A stretch of DNA of 64,000 nt from Candidatus Omnitrophota bacterium (GCA_030650425.1 JAUSED010000008.1:4554-68553); one strand, 5' to 3'. Shown: positions 9,103-45,845, numbered from the stretch's first letter. Numbers and translations are program-made. Notes: generated from the sequence alone by a model not told the origin.

Positions 9103-10029
9103 ATGACCAAAGACCTGGTTTCCATAAAAGATTTAAGCAAGGCAGAAATCGAAGAATTATTTAAGCTAACGGATCAACTAAAGAAAAATAAGAATAAATT
9201 TAGCGAGGTTTTAGCCGGTAAGACTTTGGCGCTTATTTTTCAGAAGCCTTCCAACAGGACACGGGTTTCTTTCGAAGTGGGGATGTTTCAATTAGGGGGC
9301 AATTCTTTGTATTTAGCGCCTAATGAGATCAATCTGGGTGTCAGGGAATCTATCGCTGATGTAGCCAAAACTCTCTCCAGATACGTTGACGGAATAGTCT
9401 TAAGGACCTTTGAACATAAGAATTGTCTGGAAATGGCTAAGGGCGCGGGGATACCGGTGATTAACGGGCTTTCGGATTTTTCCCATCCTTGTCAGGCTTT
9501 AGCGGATTTATATACGGTAAAAGAAAAGTTAAAGACTTTTAAGGGGGTTACCCTGGCTTACGTTGGAGATGGTAATAATGTTTGCAACTCATTGCTTTTT
9601 ATCTGCGCGAAATTAGGCGTGAATATGAACGTGAGTTCTCCTAAAGGTTATGAACCAGATAGTACGGTGTTAAAAGATGCCAAGGTTATCGCGAAAACCG
9701 CAGGCTCATTGATAAATTTATTGAGCGATCCATTGCTTGCGGTTAAAAACGCGGATGTGATTTATACGGATGTCTGGGCAAGTATGGGGCAGGAAGAGGA
9801 AGCGAAGGAAAGAAAGGAAGCTTTTAAAGATTTTCAGGTGAATAAGGATTTGATGAAATTAGCCAAGAAAGATGTTTTGATTATGCACTGCCTTCCGGCG
9901 CATAGGGGAGAAGAAATAACCGATGATGTCTTGGATAGCAGGAATGCGGTTGTCTTTGATCAGGCGGAAAATAGATTGCACGTGCAAAAAGCGATTTTAA
10001 TAAGATTACTTAACAACCGTTGCCAGTAG
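9103..10029 (+). CDS. argF: ornithine carbamoyltransferase
   Basis: 308 aa; STRTRVSFE carbamoyl-phosphate motif, HCLP and DVWASMG ornithine-binding motifs. Confidence 0.85.
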   Translation: MTKDLVSIKDLSKAEIEELFKLTDQLKKNKNKFSEVLAGKTLALIFQKPSNRTRVSFEVGMFQLGGNSLYLAPNEINLGVRESIADVAKTLSRYVDGIVLRTFEHKNCLEMAKGAGIPVINGLSDFSHPCQALADLYTVKEKLKTFKGVTLAYVGDGNNVCNSLLFICAKLGVNMNVSSPKGYEPDSTVLKDAKVIAKTAGSLINLLSDPLLAVKNADVIYTDVWASMGQEEEAKERKEAFKDFQVNKDLMKLAKKDVLIMHCLPAHRGEEITDDVLDSRNAVVFDQAENRLHVQKAILIRLLNNRCQ

Positions 10030-10123
10030 GGACTGTTCCCGAAGGGGACTGTCCTCGAAGAACTAGTGTAGCCAGTAGGGACTGTCCCCGCTTTTTGGGG
10101 ACTGTCCCACGACAAGATAAGTA
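10026..10123. repeat. cluster of four GTAG-headed GGGACTGT(T)CCC palindromes + ACGACAAGATAAGTA tail (argF/argG junction)
   Basis: Copies at 10029-10040, 10044-10055, 10078-10089, 10097-10108; third copy followed by GCTTTTTG. Confidence 0.7.
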
Positions 10124-11340: not shown

Positions 11341-11389
11341 GTAGGGACTGTCCCCGTTTTTTGGGGACTGTCCCACGACAAGATAAGTA
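11341..11389. repeat. GTAG-GGGACTGTCCCC-GTTTTTT-GGGGACTGTCCC-ACGACAAGATAAGTA (argG/argH junction)
   Basis: Near-identical to 10075-10123. Confidence 0.7.
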
Positions 11390-11413
11390 TTGGCACCTAA
11401 ATACAGGAGAGCA

Positions 11414-12802
11414 ATGTCCAAAAAACTTTGGGGCACAAGATTCTCAAAGCAGACAAACGCGTTAACCAACAAGTTTACTTCCAGTATCTCCTTTGATCAG
11501 CGATTGGCTAAGTATGATTGTTTGGGGAGTATCGCGCACGCGAAAATGCTGGGTAAGCAAAGGATTATCCCTAAGGCTGATTCCGCTTTAATGGTTAAGG
11601 GGCTTAACTCTATTTTGCAGGATTTAAAAGGCGGTAAATTTAAATTTGATTTAGGCGCCGAGGATATCCATTCCAATATTCAGGAGGCGTTGGTGAAAAA
11701 GATAGGCAAGGCTGCTTTTAAATTGCATACGGCAAGATCCCGCAACGACCAGATAGCTTTGGATATAAAAATGTATATCAAGGATGAAATAGATAACTTG
11801 GAAGGGTTGATCTCTGAGTTGCAAAAAGCAATTCTCAAGCTCGCGAAGAAGAATTCCGAGGTGATTATCCCCGGCTATACGCATTTACAAGTAGCCCAAT
11901 GCGTATTGCTGGCGCATCATCTTTTGGCTTATATCGAAGGCTTAGAAAGGGATAAGCAAAGATTACTTGATGCGAAAGCGCGGCTGGATGTTATGCCTTT
12001 AGGCGCTTGCGCGTTTTCCGGGACGAGCCTTCCGATTGACAGGAGCTATGTAGCTCGGGAATTAGGCTTTAAAAACGTAACCGCTAATAGTATTGATTCG
12101 GTCAGCGACCGGGATTTTATCATTGAGGCCCTGGCTGCCTTATCCATTTTGTCGGTGCATCTTTCGCGGATGGCCGAGGATCTTATTCTCTGGTCAACCA
12201 AAGAATTCTCATTTATTGATATTGATTTTTCTTTTTGCACCGGTTCAAGCATTATGCCGCACAAAAAGAATCCGGATATACTGGAATTAATCCGGGGCTC
12301 AGTCGGTAAAATCCAGGGTGATCTTTCCAGTGTTTTGATATTGATGAAGGGGTTACCTTCTTCCTATAACCGGGACCTGCAGTTGGATAAACCGCCGCTT
12401 TTTGACGCCATAGATACGGTTAAAGACATTTTGGAGATTTTTGTTGCCTTGTTTGAAAATATTGTGATTGAGAAAGAAGCGATTGCCGGACGCCTGGGCG
12501 ACGAAGCCTTATTTTCAGTTGATGTTGTGGAATACCTGATTAAAAAGGGCATCTCTTATAGAGAGGCGCACGATATTGTCGGCTCAATGGTCAGGGATTG
12601 CTTGGATAAAGGGAGAAAGATTTCATGCTTAAGCGAAAAAGAGTTAAATAAATATTCCCCTAAGCTTAAGACAGATGTAAAAAAGATACTCAATGCTTGG
12701 GTTTCGGTGAATCTTAAGCAATCCTATGGCGGGACAGGTTTTACGCAGGTTAATCTTCAACTTAAAAGATGGAAGAGGTTATTGGAAAGGAGAAAAATAT
12801 GA
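11414..12802 (+). CDS. argH: argininosuccinate lyase
   Basis: ORF track starts at TTG 11390; ATG 11414 (MSKKLWGTRF) with AGGAGA RBS; fumarate-lyase signature GSSIMPHKKNPD. Confidence 0.9.
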   Translation: MSKKLWGTRFSKQTNALTNKFTSSISFDQRLAKYDCLGSIAHAKMLGKQRIIPKADSALMVKGLNSILQDLKGGKFKFDLGAEDIHSNIQEALVKKIGKAAFKLHTARSRNDQIALDIKMYIKDEIDNLEGLISELQKAILKLAKKNSEVIIPGYTHLQVAQCVLLAHHLLAYIEGLERDKQRLLDAKARLDVMPLGACAFSGTSLPIDRSYVARELGFKNVTANSIDSVSDRDFIIEALAALSILSVHLSRMAEDLILWSTKEFSFIDIDFSFCTGSSIMPHKKNPDILELIRGSVGKIQGDLSSVLILMKGLPSSYNRDLQLDKPPLFDAIDTVKDILEIFVALFENIVIEKEAIAGRLGDEALFSVDVVEYLIKKGISYREAHDIVGSMVRDCLDKGRKISCLSEKELNKYSPKLKTDVKKILNAWVSVNLKQSYGGTGFTQVNLQLKRWKRLLERRKI

Positions 12803-13356
12803 CGCGTTTCCGGATTTTAGCTTTGCTTTTTCTTTTCTCTGTTTGCAGCACTGCGTTCCTATCTGCCGCTGATGAGACCCTAACCATTACCACTTATTAT
12901 CCTTCACCGTACGGTAGTTATAATTCTCTTCAAACAAGCACACTTGGCGTGGGAGACAATAACGGCGATACTAAGCTTACTTCTGCTGATGTGCCTACTA
13001 CTGTTGGAGATGTCTGGATTAAAGGCAAGGTCGGCATCGGGACGACGACACCGGGGACGAAGTTGGAGGTGAACGGTCAAATTAAGATCACCGGGGGTAA
13101 CCCTGGAGCAGGTAAAGTTTTGACTTCTGATGCCAATGGAGTGGGGAGTTGGCAGGGGGGGGGAGCTGGATTGGTTCAATATGGGGGTAGTTACTTAGTT
13201 GAATATATGGGTGGCACATGTACTACTCCTAACATAGTAACGAGTAATTGTTCCTGTCCCGCTGGTTATTCAGCTAGGATGATAGCAAAAGGCGAGTATT
13301 ACTATTATCAGCCATGGGATGCTGCTCATTGGGGCTATGCTTGTGAAAAATATTAA
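12799..13356 (+). CDS. secreted Gly/Thr-rich protein with Cys-rich C-terminal module (resembles tail-fibre or adhesin tips); function unknown
   Basis: ATG 12799 overlaps argH stop (ATGA); signal peptide MTRFRILALLFLFSVCSTAFLSA; motif GKVGIGTTTPGTKLEVNGQIKITGG...GKVLTSDANGVGSWQ; 5 Cys in last 45 aa. Confidence 0.55.
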   Translation: MTRFRILALLFLFSVCSTAFLSAADETLTITTYYPSPYGSYNSLQTSTLGVGDNNGDTKLTSADVPTTVGDVWIKGKVGIGTTTPGTKLEVNGQIKITGGNPGAGKVLTSDANGVGSWQGGGAGLVQYGGSYLVEYMGGTCTTPNIVTSNCSCPAGYSARMIAKGEYYYYQPWDAAHWGYACEKY

Positions 13357-13385
13357 TTGCGATAAAATCAAAATTAAATTATTAA

Positions 13386-13444
13386 ATTATAGACGGTTTA
13401 CGGAAGAAAATTATAGAAAATTATAGAATTATAGACGGTGTACG
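13386..13444. repeat. AT-rich tract with direct repeats ATTATAGACGGT(T/G)TACG x2 and (A)ATTATAGA x4
   Basis: Between the Gly-rich protein gene and the MNT-HepT gene; locally much more AT-rich than flanks. Confidence 0.5.
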
Positions 13445-13547
13445 TAACTGCTTAGCGTATAAGATGATAGGAAACAAATACATGAATTTAAAGAAAAAAT
13501 GAAGATAAACGTTAGTGAAGGGAATCACAAAAAATAGGGGTCAGCAA

Positions 13548-14396
13548 ATGTTAAATAAGAGTATAGCGATTCTCAAGAAGTATTTTCTTAATAAACCGGA
13601 TATATCGGCGGCTTTTTTATTCGGCTCTCAGGCAAAGACTTACGCGGGCAAGATTTCAGATTGGGATATCGCGGTCTATTTTTGGCCGAAAGAGGATAAG
13701 AGTGAAATTGAGTGGGAAGAGGCGGGTAAGGCCTATCCCGGAGAGAATAAAATTTGGGATGACCTCGTAGATATACTTAAGACCGATAATGTGGATCTGG
13801 TGGTCTTAAACCGCGCTCCGGCAAACATAGCAGCTTCGGCAATTAGCGAAGGCAGGGCCTTGGTAATTAAAGACAGAAAGGCCTTTTTGGATTTTATGCT
13901 GGTAACTATGCGCCAGGCCGAGGATTATTCTGATTTCGTAGATACCTATTATAAGATCTCCCAACGTTCAAGCTCCCTTGGCCAAAGAGACAGGGAAAAA
14001 TTAAAAAAGATTATAGATTTCTTAAGCCATGAAGTTTCTTCTCAGGAATATTTTTCAAAATTTGATTTCAACGGCTATCAAGATGCCCATAAGCGCCGCG
14101 ATATTGAGCGATGGGTGGAGAATATGATAAATTCCGCCATAGATATAGGAGAGGTTATTTTGGCTTCAGAGAAAAAGAAGATCCCTGATTATTATAAAGA
14201 TGTGTTTGTCCAGCTTGGGTTATTGCCGCAGTTTAGGCAAATGGATGTGGCAAAATTTACCGGCTGGGTTAAGCTGCGGAATATCCTGGCTCACGAATAC
14301 CTTGATCTAAAATGGCAAAAGATAAGTAGTTTTGCCCAAGAATGCAAAACGCATTTTGCGGTATTTTTGGAGGCCGCTAAGGAGTTCTTGAAATAA
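13548..14396 (+). CDS. fused minimal nucleotidyltransferase (MNT) - HepT/DUF86 (HEPN) protein, toxin-antitoxin-like
   Basis: N-terminus GSQAKTYAGKISDWDIAV (GS...DxD nucleotidyltransferase motif); C-terminus RNILAHEY (Rx4HxY HEPN motif); ORF track starts at GTG 13515, ATG 13548 likely. Confidence 0.7.
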   Translation: MLNKSIAILKKYFLNKPDISAAFLFGSQAKTYAGKISDWDIAVYFWPKEDKSEIEWEEAGKAYPGENKIWDDLVDILKTDNVDLVVLNRAPANIAASAISEGRALVIKDRKAFLDFMLVTMRQAEDYSDFVDTYYKISQRSSSLGQRDREKLKKIIDFLSHEVSSQEYFSKFDFNGYQDAHKRRDIERWVENMINSAIDIGEVILASEKKKIPDYYKDVFVQLGLLPQFRQMDVAKFTGWVKLRNILAHEYLDLKWQKISSFAQECKTHFAVFLEAAKEFLK

Positions 14397-14406
14397 AGTA
14401 AATAAA

Positions 14407-14424
14407 GGGACCGTTTCTATTTTT
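14407..14424. repeat. solo left terminal repeat GGGACCGTTTCTATTTTT of the composite-element family
   Basis: No matching right end nearby. Confidence 0.55.
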
Positions 14425-14445
14425 GATTCAGAGGATAAAAAACAA

Positions 14446-15693
14446 ATGCATGAATTCAAATATATTCATAAACAGCTTTATTGCGAAAAATTAAAAGTAG
14501 CAGGCTTAGCGGAAAAATTTGGAACGCCGCTGTATGTCTATAGCTATGATACCTTAGTTGGCCACTTTCTTAAATTGAAGGAGGCTTTTAAATCTATTAA
14601 ACCGTTGATTTGCTATTCGGTAAAAGCCAATTCTAATCTGGCAATTTTGAGAGCATTAGTTAATCAAGGTGCTGGCTTGGATATCGTTTCCGGAGGCGAG
14701 CTTTTCCGGGCAAGGCGCGCCGGTTGTCCGGCAAATAGAATAGTCTATGCTTCGGTAGGTAAAACCGATTACGAAATAAAAGAGGCGATAAAATCAGGAA
14801 TTTTCTTTTTCAATGTGGAGTCATTCCCTGAATTAAAAAATATCCAGCATATCGCCAGAAGGCTTAAAAGGCGGGTGAATGTTGCTTTGCGTATCAATCC
14901 TGATGTTGAGCCTAAAACCCATAAATATATTACTACCGGGAAGCTGACCAATAAATTCGGGATAGATTTTCAAAGCGCTAAACGGATTATTTTACTAGCG
15001 AGAGGTTTTTCGCATGTAAAAATCTCCGGGCTGCACATTCATATCGGCTCACAAATCACTACTCCGGAGCCTTTTGTGGCAGCGATAACCAGAATAATCA
15101 GGTTTATCTTGGTGCTTAAAAAAGAGGGGATCGCCTTGGAATATTTAAATATCGGGGGAGGCCTGGGGATTATTTACGATCGGGAAACGCCTCAGACCGC
15201 GGCCAGATTCGCGGCCAGGATCTTACCCTTATTGAAAAAATCCGGGCTTAAAATAATTATGGAACCGGGCAGGTTTATCGCGGGGAATGCCGGGATATTG
15301 GTGACTAAAGTACTTTATGTCAAAAATACGCCGAAGAAAAAATTTATTATTGTGGATGCCGGAATGAATGATTTAATCCGTCCGGCGTTATATGACGCGT
15401 ATCATAACATTGTTCCTCTACAGAGGACAGAAAACAGAAAACAGGAGGCAGAGAAAGCCGATATTGTCGGCCCTATTTGCGAGAGTGGAGATTTTTTAGC
15501 CAAAGAAAGGATTGTGCCTAATCTGGAAGAAGGAGATTATTTAGCCGTAATGGGCGCCGGGGCATATGGTTTCAGTATGGCCAGTAACTACAATTCCCGG
15601 CGAAGGCCCCAAGAGGTACTCGTAAATAAAGATAAGGTATCTGTAATCCGTAAAAGAGAGTCTTATAAGGATTTAATCCGTAATGAATTGTAA
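14446..15693 (+). CDS. lysA: diaminopimelate decarboxylase
   Basis: 415 aa; fold-III PLP decarboxylase motifs (CYSVKAN, GPICESGD). Confidence 0.88.
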   Translation: MHEFKYIHKQLYCEKLKVAGLAEKFGTPLYVYSYDTLVGHFLKLKEAFKSIKPLICYSVKANSNLAILRALVNQGAGLDIVSGGELFRARRAGCPANRIVYASVGKTDYEIKEAIKSGIFFFNVESFPELKNIQHIARRLKRRVNVALRINPDVEPKTHKYITTGKLTNKFGIDFQSAKRIILLARGFSHVKISGLHIHIGSQITTPEPFVAAITRIIRFILVLKKEGIALEYLNIGGGLGIIYDRETPQTAARFAARILPLLKKSGLKIIMEPGRFIAGNAGILVTKVLYVKNTPKKKFIIVDAGMNDLIRPALYDAYHNIVPLQRTENRKQEAEKADIVGPICESGDFLAKERIVPNLEEGDYLAVMGAGAYGFSMASNYNSRRRPQEVLVNKDKVSVIRKRESYKDLIRNEL

Positions 15694-18170: not shown

Positions 18171-18213
18171 AAAATGGGGACTGTCCCCGTTTTCTGGGGA
18201 CTGTCCCCATTTT
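18171..18213. repeat. 43-bp near-perfect palindrome AAAATGGGGACTGTCCCC-GTTTTCT-GGGGACTGTCCCC-ATTTT (dapB/dapL junction)
   Basis: Two GGGGACTGTCCCC copies, each followed by a T-rich run. Confidence 0.7.
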
Positions 18214-21777: not shown

Positions 21778-21915
21778 GGGACCGTTTCTATTTTTTCATA
21801 GTAGGGACACTTTTCTTTAGCCTGAAGGGGACACTTTCCTTTTGAGGCTTTCATTAGAGCCCTGACGGAAAGTGTCCCCTGAACGCCCTGAACGAGGAAA
21901 AATAGAAACGGTCCC
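21778..21915. repeat. composite element: TIR GGGACCGTTTCTATTTTTT ... AAAAATAGAAACGGTCCC enclosing GTAG-GGGACACTTTTC, GGGGACACTTTCC / GGAAAGTGTCCCC
   Basis: 138 bp; between the Lys-rich mini-protein gene and GT2. Confidence 0.75.
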
Positions 21916-29801: not shown

Positions 29802-29880
29802 GGGACCGTTTCTATTTTTCTAAAGTAGGGGAGGTTTAAACCTCCCCTACCGTCTTAAAAATAGAAACGGTCCCTTTTTT
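29802..29880. repeat. composite element: TIR GGGACCGTTTCTATTTTT / AAAAATAGAAACGGTCCC enclosing the 26-bp perfect palindrome GTAGGGGAGGTTTAAACCTCCCCTAC; followed by TTTTTT
   Basis: Hairpin plus T-run could act as an intrinsic terminator after the PilX-like gene. Confidence 0.75.
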
Positions 29881-37476: not shown

Positions 37477-37574
37477 GGGACCGTTTCTATTTTTCCCTAT
37501 TAGGGGACACTTTCCAACAGTCAGTAAACGCGTGTAGGAAAGTGTCCCCTGAACGAAAAAATAGAAACGGTCCC
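37477..37574. repeat. composite element (TIRs as above) enclosing ATTAG-GGGACACTTTCC ... GTAG-GAAAGTGTCCCC with ACGCGT-centred spacer
   Basis: Inner 66 bp nearly identical to 39010-39075 and 45766-45830. Confidence 0.75.
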
Positions 37575-38522: not shown

Positions 38523-38581
38523 GGGGACGGTTCTATTTTTCCGGCGTTAGACTCAAGAAAAATAGAACCGTCCCCTTTTTT
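38523..38581. repeat. variant composite element GGGGACGGTTCTATTTTT ... AAAAATAGAACCGTCCCC + TTTTTT between pilin 2 and pilin 3
   Basis: Variant TIR (CGG instead of CCG) shared with the intragenic copy at 44280-44332. Confidence 0.7.
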
Positions 38582-38991: not shown

Positions 38992-39093
38992 GGGACCGTT
39001 TCTATTTTTCCCTGTTAGGGGACATTTTCCAACAGCCAGTAAACGCGTGTAGGAAAGTGTCCCCTTAGACTCTAGAAAAATAGAAACGGTCCC
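38992..39093. repeat. composite element (TIR GGGACCGTTTCTATTTTT / AAAAATAGAAACGGTCCC) with inner REP pair
   Basis: Between pilin 3 and pilin 4. Confidence 0.75.
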
Positions 39094-42094: not shown

Positions 42095-42167
42095 GGGGCT
42101 GTAGCTCAGCTGGGAGAGCGCCTCGTTCGCAACGAGGAGGCCAGGAGTTCGATCCTCCTCAGCTCCA
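42095..42167 (+). tRNA. tRNA-Ala (anticodon CGC)
   Basis: 73 nt cloverleaf GGGGCUG/UA/GCUC...GAGC/G/CCUCG-UUCGCAA-CGAGG/AGGCC/AGGAG-UUCGAUC-CUCCU/CAGCUCC/A; G3:U70 Ala identity pair; CCA not encoded. Confidence 0.85.
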
Positions 42168-43709: not shown

Positions 43710-44495
43710 ATGCATAGATTCTTTTGTACAACTTCAGATATCACAAGTACCGAAATAATCATTAAGGATAAAGAACAGGCGCACCATATAAGAGATGTCC
43801 TCAGGCTTAAGCCGGGTAAACAGGTGGAGGTATTTGATGAAAAGGGAAATGAATATAGCTGCGAGATTCGCGAAATAAAAGATAAAATCTATCTTGAGAT
43901 TAAAAATAAAATTGCCGCCGATAAAATAAGCCAGAGAATAAAACTAACTGTAGCTTGCGCCCTGCCCAAGAAGTCTAAGCTAGACGATATCATTGATAAA
44001 CTTGTCCAGTTGGGAGTACACAGGATCATCCCGTTAAAAACAGAACGCGTAATCGTTAAGTTAGATAAATATAAAGAAGCAGGCCGGCTTGAGCGCTGGA
44101 GAAAAATCGCGCTTAGCGCCGCCAAACAAAGTAAGAGAAATGACTTACCTGTAATTGAGCCGGTTCAGGATTTACAAAAGGTTATCGCGCGATCGCAAGA
44201 ATTTGATTTAAAGCTTATACCGTATTTAGGAGGAGAGCGTAAAAATCTAAAGGATGTTTTAGATAAATTCTTAAAAAAAGGGGACGGTTCTATTTTTTCG
44301 GCATCAGACTCTAGAAAAATAGAACCGTCCCCTTGTTTTTTAATTCTTATCGGCCCGGAAGGAGATTTCTCTGAAGCAGAGGTAAAGCTAGCCGTAGCCG
44401 CGGGATTTATTCCGGTAACCCTTGGTGATTTAGTTTTACGCGTGGATACCGCGGCCATCGCGGCGGCCAGCTTCATTACTATGTACACCTCGTAG
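43710..44495 (+). CDS. rsmE: 16S rRNA (uracil1498-N3)-methyltransferase RsmE with an in-frame repeat insertion
   Basis: ATG 43710 (MHRFF...); C-terminal SPOUT motif LILIGPEGDFSEAE...LGDLVLRVDTAAIAA; residues GDGSIFSASDSRKIEPSP are encoded by a repeat element at 44280-44332. Confidence 0.8.
   Translation: MHRFFCTTSDITSTEIIIKDKEQAHHIRDVLRLKPGKQVEVFDEKGNEYSCEIREIKDKIYLEIKNKIAADKISQRIKLTVACALPKKSKLDDIIDKLVQLGVHRIIPLKTERVIVKLDKYKEAGRLERWRKIALSAAKQSKRNDLPVIEPVQDLQKVIARSQEFDLKLIPYLGGERKNLKDVLDKFLKKGDGSIFSASDSRKIEPSPCFLILIGPEGDFSEAEVKLAVAAGFIPVTLGDLVLRVDTAAIAAASFITMYTS
44280..44332. repeat. variant composite element GGGGACGGTTCTATTTTTT ... AAAAATAGAACCGTCCCC inside rsmE, in frame
   Basis: Encodes GDGSIFSASDSRKIEPSP just before the GPEGD SPOUT motif. 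Confidence 0.7.
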
Positions 44496-45747: not shown

Positions 45748-45845
45748 GGGACCGTTTCTATTTTCCCTAGTAGGGGACACTTTCCAACAGCCAGTAAACG
45801 CGTGTAGGAAAGTGTCCCCTGAGCGAAAAAAATAGAAACGGTCCC
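45748..45845. repeat. composite element (TIRs GGGACCGTTTCTATTTT / AAAAAAATAGAAACGGTCCC) with GTAG-GGGGACACTTTCC ... GTAG-GAAAGTGTCCCC
   Basis: After the MtaB-like gene. Confidence 0.75.

Follow-up and report, generated by a model that had tools for sequence, protein, structure and literature searches.

Between argH and lysA, in a 64,000-nucleotide stretch of DNA from a Candidatus Omnitrophota bacterium (GCA_030650425.1 JAUSED010000008.1:4554-68553; the whole of this stretch is referred to below as the window), lies an islet of ~1.6 kb (~12,802 to 14,445) with two cargo genes. The second of these encodes a true covalent fusion of an MNT nucleotidyltransferase with a HepT-type HEPN domain, in which the catalytic motifs are intact. 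The best-supported reading, which draws on the sequence and on analogy with a characterised protein, is that this would be a FhepTA-like single-chain type VII toxin-antitoxin (TA), i.e., an example of a known system and not a new one. We give a probability of about 0.72 to the explanation as a whole, in which the islet is variable among relatives, its first gene would encode a Sec-exported modular protein, its second the FhepTA-like TA, and both would have arrived by insertions at the start of lysA.

An earlier note on this DNA, made from the sequence alone, had implied that the fusion was novel. This view had to be given up. The architecture was listed in 2013 by Anantharaman et al., who described DUF86-type HEPN domains as "occasionally fused to MNT" (PMC3710099), it was characterised in 2026, and the family is large. 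The characterised protein is FhepTA (SO_1440, 276 aa), a fused MNT-HEPN type VII TA from the Shewanella oneidensis prophage CP4So (Yao et al., NAR 2026; PMC13000451). Full-length FhepTA is non-toxic, while the HEPN half by itself is toxic. Its MNT domain puts three AMPs on the Tyr of the R-phi-xxxHxY motif in an intramolecular reaction for which the linker is required, and also blocks HEPN dimerisation (PMC13000451). A redox switch is formed by two FhepTA-specific cysteines of the HEPN domain, C163 and C270 (PMC13000451).

The open reading frame (ORF), domains, motifs and modelled fold of the window protein were established in this analysis, and its features, with the evidence for each, are as follows.

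13548..14396, plus strand: fused MntA-HepT gene, 282 aa from ATG (Pfam, NCBIfam, family alignment, model).
13548-13961, plus strand: MNT domain, ~aa 1-138 (Pfam/NCBIfam, model).
Within 13548..14396, plus strand: conserved linker ISQRSSSL, ~aa 137-144 (family alignment).
13983-14393, plus strand: HEPN domain, ~aa 146-282 (Pfam/NCBIfam, model).
13623..13667, plus strand: nucleotidyltransferase motif G26-S27-Q28-x9-D38-W39-D40 (alignment; matches the GSQx9-DxD of FhepTA).
14277..14300, plus strand: HEPN RNase motif with acceptor tyrosine, R244-N-I-L-A-H249-E-Y251 (alignment; matches R-phi-xxxHxY).

A GTG at 13515 is an alternative start codon; the ATG at 13548 is favoured by the family alignment and by a database entry of 282 aa (P0001). 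Both domains were recovered by the hidden Markov model searches which the earlier note had proposed as a check, the Pfam Polbeta/NTP_transf_2 match covering residues ~9-110 of the 282-aa protein (7e-16) and the HepT-like match residues ~166-275 (6.9e-13; 48.8 bits vs a cutoff of 23.5). The NCBIfam type VII equivalog MntA_antitoxin was matched with 74.2 bits, above its cutoff of 60. The single polypeptide joining MNT (GS...DWD) to HepT/HEPN (RNILAHEY), as read from the sequence in that note, is therefore real, and is encoded by one uninterrupted ORF.

In an alignment of 32 homologues with 46-82% identity, G26, S27, D38, W39, and D40 are invariant (32/32), as are N245, H249, E250, and Y251, and R244 is nearly so. 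The linker, ISQRSxSL, is among the best-conserved segments, with S143 invariant and I137, R140, and L144 conserved in at least 90% of the sequences. No Cys column of this alignment is invariant or conserved at 90% or above, and the window protein has a single Cys, in AQECKTH. The AlphaFold (AF2) model has a mean predicted local distance difference test (pLDDT) score of 87. In a fold search, its N-terminal half matches the MntA chains 7aer_A and 7bxo_A, and its C-terminal half the HepT chains 6m6u_H (TMt 0.85) and 5yep_B, as well as YutE (1ylm). At the junction a helix (110-138) is followed by a loop (139-145) and a second helix (146-164). The loop with the acceptor Tyr is the least confident part of the model, residues 251-253 having pLDDT values below 50. 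Because there is no Met between residues 123 and 193, no ATG is available for separate synthesis of the HEPN half. An independent Logan assembly has the same 282-aa ORF, in the same order of argH, secreted-protein gene, MNT-HepT gene and lysA.

The family of the fused protein is large. A 90%-clustered database contained 841 homologues at E ≤ 1e-3, and those listed are mostly ~280 aa long with both Pfam domains; 50%-identity representatives yielded 56 clusters at E ≤ 1e-30, as well as shorter relatives with a single domain. An intact single ORF of 277-337 aa was present in 78/80 surveyed metagenomic loci. The named family members come from Omnitrophota and Planctomycetota. Their genomic contexts are mutually unrelated (after lpxB, after an aminotransferase gene, beside PqqD/radical-SAM genes) and, among the 208 neighbour proteins of 78 loci, no family occurred in more than 3 loci, so that the MNT-HepT gene behaves as an accessory gene that is solitary and scattered. 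Several of these 208 neighbours are other TA-type genes. In plasmid collections there was one distant match, a split MNT/DUF86 gene pair on a haloarchaeal plasmid, and PHROGs gave no match for either of the two inserted proteins. We also observed that in L004:1-6017 and L090:13-2075, fused homologues of ~72% identity stand beside PqqD, radical-SAM, and TPR (FlmR_OhkR_N) genes, a context resembling that of ribosomally synthesised and post-translationally modified peptides; L004 additionally has an AbiEii gene.

The islet is flanked by genes of arginine and lysine biosynthesis.

11390..12802, plus strand: argH (argininosuccinate lyase), left flank (Pfam Lyase_1 1e-68, and ASL_C2; C-terminus compared with those of L006, L013, L177, and L173).
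14446..15693, plus strand: lysA (diaminopimelate decarboxylase), right flank (Pfam Orn_Arg_deC_N 4e-58; the name is also given in the source database).

The gene order, all on the plus strand, is argD-argF-argG-argH, the two additional ORFs, lysA-dapF-dapA-dapB, and an aminotransferase gene. In 15 relatives argH directly abuts lysA, and the DNA between them in the window is therefore an insertion, a status which could be seen directly by comparing the loci. Eleven of these relatives were found via ArgH (L006, L013, L011, L007, L008, L027, L033, L034, L038, L040, and L009; ArgH identity 39-73%), ten of them being named Omnitrophota and one Elusimicrobia; in L006 and L013 argH and lysA overlap as ATGCATGA. 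Close relatives according to LysA include three without an insert, L174 (85%), L176 (84%), and L177 (84% for LysA, 86% for ArgH), and others with accessory DNA 5' of lysA, L173/L172 (87%) and L175 (89%). The cargo upstream of lysA in L175 is a different gene, DUF4143-like by eye.

In L173 the islet is larger and rich in TA genes. Its order is argH, a lysA fragment (residues 59-84), a leader relic, Phd/ParE, a split MNT/HepT pair with 25-29% identity to the window protein, a secreted-protein gene, a lysA leader with a ~27-codon relic, an MNT-HepT remnant, DUF4258 together with a zinc-ribbon gene, and lysA. The first 126 nt of the secreted-protein gene are 85% identical to those of the window gene, and the L173 protein ends in Peptidase_S74. 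The MNT-HepT remnant retains residues 1-23 (83%) and 169-281 (87%), the MNT domain being replaced by ~90 nt. DNA homology of the window cassette to the copies in L173, L178, and L086 is restricted to the MNT-HepT gene. The order of secreted-protein gene, MNT-HepT and lysA is common to the window and L173, and the arrangement thus predates the split of the window genome from L173.

The earlier note's picture of an otherwise contiguous arg-lys/dap supercluster, interrupted by accessory DNA, is in agreement with the adjacency of argH and lysA in the 15 relatives. The same genes do lie in the same place in L173, one of the two closest relatives, and are missing there from the 15 more distant ones; the DNA is thus inserted, though the insertion is older than the window genome. 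To judge from these comparisons, the argH-lysA junction is a variable hot spot rich in TA genes. Beside it, two types of argH were observed among close relatives: in L174:4654-5985, L176:5572-6936, and L040:6001-7227 the encoded ArgH is only 42-48% identical to that of the window, whereas argG and lysA on its two sides reach 72-90% identity, a mismatch which points to xenologous replacement of argH. Furthermore, L006:9466-10961 has LemA-like and M48 (HtpX-like) peptidase genes, as read from their translations, between dapF and dapA, so that insertions are tolerated in the dap part of the super-operon as well.

Marks of the lysA start lie on both sides of the second gene and probably also at the left end of the islet; the direct repeats and the lysA relic can be read directly in the DNA.

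12786..12802, plus strand: left junction AAGGAGAAAAATATGA, Shine-Dalgarno sequence and ATG (12799) overlapping the argH stop codon, 12800-12802 (sequence, comparison with L177).
13376..13428, plus strand: AT-rich local duplication, repeating in part the 5' portion of the relic (13376-13405), then AGAAAATTAT in 2.4 copies, 13405-13428 (repeat search).
13428..13494, plus strand: relic of the lysA leader and first five codons, TATAGACGGTGTACGTAACTGCTTAGCGTATAAGATGATAGGAAACAAATACATGAATTTAAA (alignment to L175 and L173).
13495..14433, plus strand: MNT-HepT cassette with a 53-nt leader, the gene and a 37-nt tail (lies between the direct repeats).
14434..14460, plus strand: right direct repeat GATAAAAAACAAATGCATGAATTCAAA, the Shine-Dalgarno-distal leader and first five lysA codons (23/27 identical to 13468-13494).

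The AT-rich tract upstream of the MNT-HepT gene contains a ~30-nt unit in two copies (13376-13405 and 13418-13447; 87% identical, 42 bp apart), the second of which continues into ...GTACGTAACTGCTTAGCGTATAAGATGATAGGAAACAAATACATGAATTTAAA (to 13494). It aligns with TTGACGTTGTACGTAACTGCTTAG...GGAAATAAATGCATGAATTCAAA, the live lysA 5' region of L175, and with a longer relic present in L173, and resembles, by eye, the argH-lysA spacer of the island-free L176. The triplets ATA-CAT-GAA-TTT-AAA are a decayed M-H-E-F-K, the first five codons of LysA, with the ATG mutated to ATA. The 16-mer GTACGTAACTGCTTAG was found only in L091 (the window genome), L173, and L175 among 177 loci, and two copies of the 21-nt core AAACAAATRCATGAATTYAAA, at 13472 and 14440, are present in the window (0 expected by chance). 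Repeats of 27 nt, 23/27 identical, thus flank the MNT-HepT cassette at 13468-13494 and 14434-14460. By its sequence, the AT-rich tract is best described as the scar left when DNA was inserted at the start of lysA, together with a small duplication of local sequence.

The earlier note had read this tract as iterons. Iteron arrays usually consist of three or more regular direct repeats of ~17-22 bp beside a replication initiator gene. The tract has two copies of its unit and a 2.4-copy 10-mer, it is continuous with the lysA relic, and neither a rep gene nor an Rfam family is associated with it; an iteron array or replication origin was therefore rejected. Also rejected was an autoregulatory operator of the MNT-HepT gene. 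The candidate upstream motif, TAGACGGTGTACG, is missing 5' of seven homologues of 66-73% identity, and a TAGACGGTGTACG-like match upstream of L086 was not significant by blastn; the motif is better accounted for as lysA leader.

The left junction of the window resembles the junction at which argH and lysA are coupled in the island-free L177 (GGAGTATAATATG-CAC). The window sequence ...TGGAAGAGGTTATTGGAAAGGAGAAAAATATGACG parallels ...TGGAGCCGGATATTATAGGAGTATAATATGCAC of L177 (argH end, Shine-Dalgarno sequence, lysA ATG) and also the L173 relic TATTGGAAGAGAGAGAAATATG, which is followed by lysA codon ~57. The last five codons of argH (ERRKI*) span the Shine-Dalgarno/spacer sequence preceding the lysA ATG in L177, and homology at the left junction resumes at 12789 (L173) and 12730 (L178). 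From these short similarities we infer that the secreted-protein gene took over the old RBS (ribosome binding site) of lysA as well as its start codon, and that ArgH gained its ERRKI tail.

On this reading the islet would have been enlarged by insertions right where lysA begins. Through a first insertion, the former Shine-Dalgarno sequence and ATG would have passed to the secreted-protein gene, and a later one would have placed the MNT-HepT cassette just past the lysA start, duplicating at least 27 nt of leader and 5' codons, after which the upstream copy of the lysA start would have decayed into the AT-rich tract. We propose this order of events, and the mode of recombination implied by it, on the strength of the junction sequences.

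The first cargo gene is the following.

12799..13356, plus strand: secreted-protein gene, 185 aa, Omnitrophota "TITTYYPSPYG" family (348 homologues).

Its ATG overlaps the argH stop codon (ATGA), 6 nt 3' of AGGAG, and its product begins with a hydrophobic stretch resembling a signal sequence, has a body rich in Gly and Thr, and carries four Cys within the last ~50 residues. The translationally coupled gene for a secreted, Gly/Thr-rich, Cys-tipped protein announced in the earlier note is thus confirmed. The family has at least 348 members, and those with a named source are nearly all Omnitrophota. The core TYYP-PYG-Y is invariant and lies in a conserved N-terminal module of ~90 aa (TITTYYPSPYG...VGIGT), whereas the C-termini are unrelated, being Peptidase_S74, C1q, H_lectin, short Cys-rich tips as in the window, or none. 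The window protein itself had no Pfam, NCBIfam or PHROG match, and its AF2 model was poor (pLDDT 66; predicted TM-score, pTM, 0.38) and below use for fold search. The label "tail-fibre-like" in the earlier note is apt for the design of the family, which has relatives with S74, and does not suit the window copy, for which no S74 or PHROG match was found. The Sec-type signal sequence suggests that the window copy is a cellular exported protein, and the best explanation of the sequence is a putative Sec-exported surface protein of an Omnitrophota-specific modular family with a swappable C-terminal tip.

The spacer between the first and the second ORF is 191 bp long with a G+C content of 31-33%, and that between the second ORF and lysA is 49 bp. 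In a promoter/terminator scan no plus-strand terminator was found 3' of either inserted gene, which makes read-through into lysA plausible, and promoter-like matches were at background level. Codon usage of the secreted-protein gene is mildly atypical (fifth lowest among 59 genes). That of the MNT-HepT gene is host-like, so that a foreign origin was not borne out by composition for this gene. No integrase, transposase, tRNA or phage gene is adjacent to the islet.

For the enzymology and biological role of the fused protein we argue by analogy with FhepTA. With ATP as substrate, its MNT domain (GSQx9DWD) would oligo-AMPylate Tyr251 of the same polypeptide, and the AMPylated tyrosine, two residues past the catalytic His of R244x4H249, would keep the HEPN RNase silent; the MNT domain would additionally hinder HEPN dimerisation. 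The self-AMPylating module which the earlier note considered possible would thus match the experiments on the Shewanella protein (PMC13000451). The RNase would be released when ATP is lost, when the MNT half is proteolysed, or when the AMPs are removed, and would then cleave RNA and arrest the cell. The outcome may be stabilisation of the islet (addiction), abortion of phage infection, or both.

Several observations weigh against this interpretation or limit it. The NCBIfam equivalog HepT_toxin was matched with 55.6 bits, just below its cutoff of 60. According to Anantharaman et al. (2013), MNT-fused HEPN domains are typically without RNase residues (PMC3710099). The window protein does not have the redox cysteines C163 and C270, and its regulation may therefore differ from that of FhepTA, although these cysteines belong to the Shewanella protein and not necessarily to the fused architecture. 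The fusion in the window clade may also be independent of that in SO_1440. Phage records (searched by tblastn) and viral contigs gave no match and PADLOC gave only weak ones (PDC-S09, E = 2e-5), which leaves a defence role as conjecture. Caution is required by L173, where the remnant encodes a 112-aa HEPN-only ORF with RNILAHEY intact (L173:5846-6347, the ~90-nt replacement having two short inverted repeats); unless silent, it is hard to square with strong toxicity of a free HEPN domain. Finally, the order of insertions is reconstructed from four contigs, two of which are very short.

We considered whether the protein might instead be a domesticated nucleotidyltransferase of the kanamycin/lincosamide/spectinomycin or GlnD/GlnE type, which modifies a small molecule or another protein, its HEPN-like half only binding the substrate, and is not a TA at all. 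The generalisation that MNT-fused HEPN domains are usually inactive (PMC3710099) would favour such an enzyme, as would the character of the gene, a well-conserved singleton (46-82% identity in many genomes) with host-like codon usage. However, the family has an invariant or nearly invariant RNase motif and acceptor Tyr, each half finds its best matches in sequence and fold among bona fide MntA and HepT, and the gene occurs in scattered, TA-rich contexts. The whole-chain model does loosely match the two-domain enzymes ANT(4'), AAD(9), LinB, and HalB, but with TM < 0.3 and a root-mean-square deviation of 14-16 Å, and the weak match to Lnu(H) (E = 0.037) reached 13.5 bits vs a cutoff of 540. We consider a domesticated enzyme improbable. 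That the fusion or the insertion results from an assembly or sequencing artefact, whether a stop codon or frameshift missed within an mntA-hepT operon of two genes or a contig that is chimeric, is barely conceivable. The source is a metagenome-assembled genome and some short database matches span one half only, but the independent Logan assembly has the same ORF and gene order, the 78/80 loci with one ORF come from many unrelated samples, and a linker this well conserved is not expected of an artefact. The split MNT and HepT pair in the same islet of L173 would favour an artefact, but has only 25-29% identity to the fused protein.

A different proposal concerns the relation of the two cargo genes, which may form a functional or co-mobile two-gene unit inserting at gene starts, either with the TA guarding a diversifying surface-fibre locus or as the remnant of a phage-like element. 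All four contigs with an MNT-HepT gene at least 78% identical to the window's carry an adjacent gene of the TYYPSPYG family, which is otherwise sparse (one gene in the 64-kb window, none in 435 kb around 80 other fused homologues). The secreted gene is upstream of MNT-HepT in the window and L173, while in L086 (78%) MNT-HepT precedes a secreted gene of the second type, at another locus beside clpP and an aminotransferase gene. In the closest homologue (82%; L178:926-1294) the 3' end of MNT-HepT is joined to an argH 3' relic of ~70 nt, followed by the same Shine-Dalgarno/ATG and a TYYPSPYG gene of the second type. The arrangement, on a contig of only 1.3 kb, has the appearance of a circularly permuted or tandemly duplicated islet, and the permuted order would fit a circular or tandem-duplicated intermediate. 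On the other hand, the window, L173 and L178 probably represent one homologous islet, which reduces the independent support to one relocation (L086), and no TYYPSPYG-family gene was found in 435 kb around 80 more distant fused homologues. P0122, a close homologue of the secreted protein, is encoded in the vicinity of pilin-like genes and has no MNT-HepT beside it, the secreted proteins have unrelated C-terminal tips, and the islet has neither an adjacent integrase, transposase or phage gene nor phage/viral matches. A co-mobile unit is on balance unlikely. Still bolder, and very unlikely, is the idea that an integrase-less cassette of fibre and TA inserts at the start of a coupled gene, reusing the RBS and duplicating the leader and first codons, with the argH-lysA junction of this Omnitrophota sub-clade as a dedicated TA-capture site and cassettes ending in an "A-rich, GGGAC, T-run" half-palindrome. 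If true, this would be a cassette-capture system mechanistically distinct from integrons.

Downstream of the fused gene lies part of a repeat which is dispersed in the window.

14407..14424, plus strand: solo arm GGGACCGTTTCTATTTTT (18 nt) of a palindromic repeat resembling repetitive extragenic palindromic (REP) sequences or miniature inverted-repeat transposable elements (MITE) (arm search of the window).

The solo element end at 14407 mentioned in the earlier note is indeed one arm of a paired repeat. The window has 17 arms of the GGGACCGTTTCTATTTTT element (0.11 expected by chance), in seven inverted pairs and three solo copies (14407, 26702, and 43671). Complete pairs are located at 21778-21915, 29802-29874, 37477-37574, 38992-39093, and 45748-45845, and variant pairs at 38523-38575 and 44280-44332. 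The elements are intergenic, 75-140 bp long, with 18-nt terminal inverted repeats and an inner inverted repeat AGGGGACACTTTCC/GGAAAGTGTCCCCT, and could be REP/MITE-like or act as terminators in both directions. In L173, three cassettes have related "GGGAC + T-run" half-sites after their stop codons. As no partner arm was found at the left junction, allowing up to 3 mismatches, the islet is not bounded by the palindromic element.

A second repeat, GGGACTGTCCC(C), has 16 matches in the window vs 0.34 expected by chance. Copies at 57-67, 10029-10108, 11344-11374, and 18177-18207 include copies paired at a distance of 20 nt within the spacers that follow argF, argG, and dapB, and paired copies could form a 12-bp hairpin. 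The window (1-64000) has 69 ORFs with a length of at least 120 aa, nearly all on the plus strand, the few minus-strand ORFs overlapping plus-strand ORFs, and GC skew is mainly positive across 9-19 kb. Rfam identified nothing in the islet region (whole window at the gathering threshold; 12600-14600 at E ≤ 1), its sole match in the window being a tRNA-Ala at 42095.

The locus opens no long-standing question. Its interest is that the single-chain MNT-HEPN arrangement, characterised so far only in Shewanella, forms a family that is large and stable and extends over Omnitrophota, Planctomycetota, and related uncultured bacteria. In this clade the motifs for AMPylation and RNase activity are retained without the redox cysteines, which offers a natural test of which regulatory layers are architectural. 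The locus also documents a biosynthetic super-operon that tolerates accessory DNA, the inserted gene apparently inheriting the RBS and start codon and the displaced gene keeping a duplicated leader, and an attractive but wrong reading of its AT-rich repeats as iterons has been corrected.

Among known systems, FhepTA was compared by size, domain order and motifs as described for SO_1440. The two proteins share an N-terminal MNT domain followed by a C-terminal HEPN domain (282 aa in the window vs 276 aa), the GSQx9DxD nucleotidyltransferase motif including the Q of GSQ, the R-phi-xxxH RNase motif with the acceptor Tyr two residues past the His, a linker which is short, with no ATG for making the HEPN half on its own, and a gene that is monocistronic and lies in accessory DNA. 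They differ in the linker sequence (ISQRSxSL in the window family vs SAQNHFII in FhepTA), in a conserved EWEE...YP insert in the MNT domain of the window family, and in their setting, a prophage vs a chromosomal islet of 1.6 kb in an Omnitrophota host. The two-gene HepT/MntA type VII TA systems (S. oneidensis SO_3166/SO_3165; Aphanizomenon flos-aquae HEPN/MNT; PDB 5yep, 6m6u, 7bxo, and 7ae2-7ae9) are those which both halves of the window protein match best by sequence profile and fold, and they have the same catalytic motifs and position of the modified tyrosine. They are, however, encoded in operons and form 2:6 or 2:2 complexes, whereas the window protein is one chain with a fixed 1:1 ratio and has ~16-25% identity to the solved proteins.

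The secreted protein shares with Peptidase_S74 tail fibres a modular build of conserved stalk and variable tip. Some members of its family, including the L173 orthologue, end in Peptidase_S74, and databases name such members "tail fiber domain-containing protein", whereas the window copy is without S74, PHROG match or phage genes nearby. As for the islet, it resembles the TA-rich variable islets of integration hot spots in having conserved flanks and a content that differs between close relatives (two genes in the window; Phd/ParE, split MNT/HepT, a fibre gene, a HEPN remnant, and DUF4258 in L173), and in being missing from slightly more distant relatives. It differs from them in having no integrase, tRNA or transposase nearby, and in its position inside an amino-acid biosynthesis super-operon, at a translationally coupled junction where the leader and first codons of the recipient gene have been copied.

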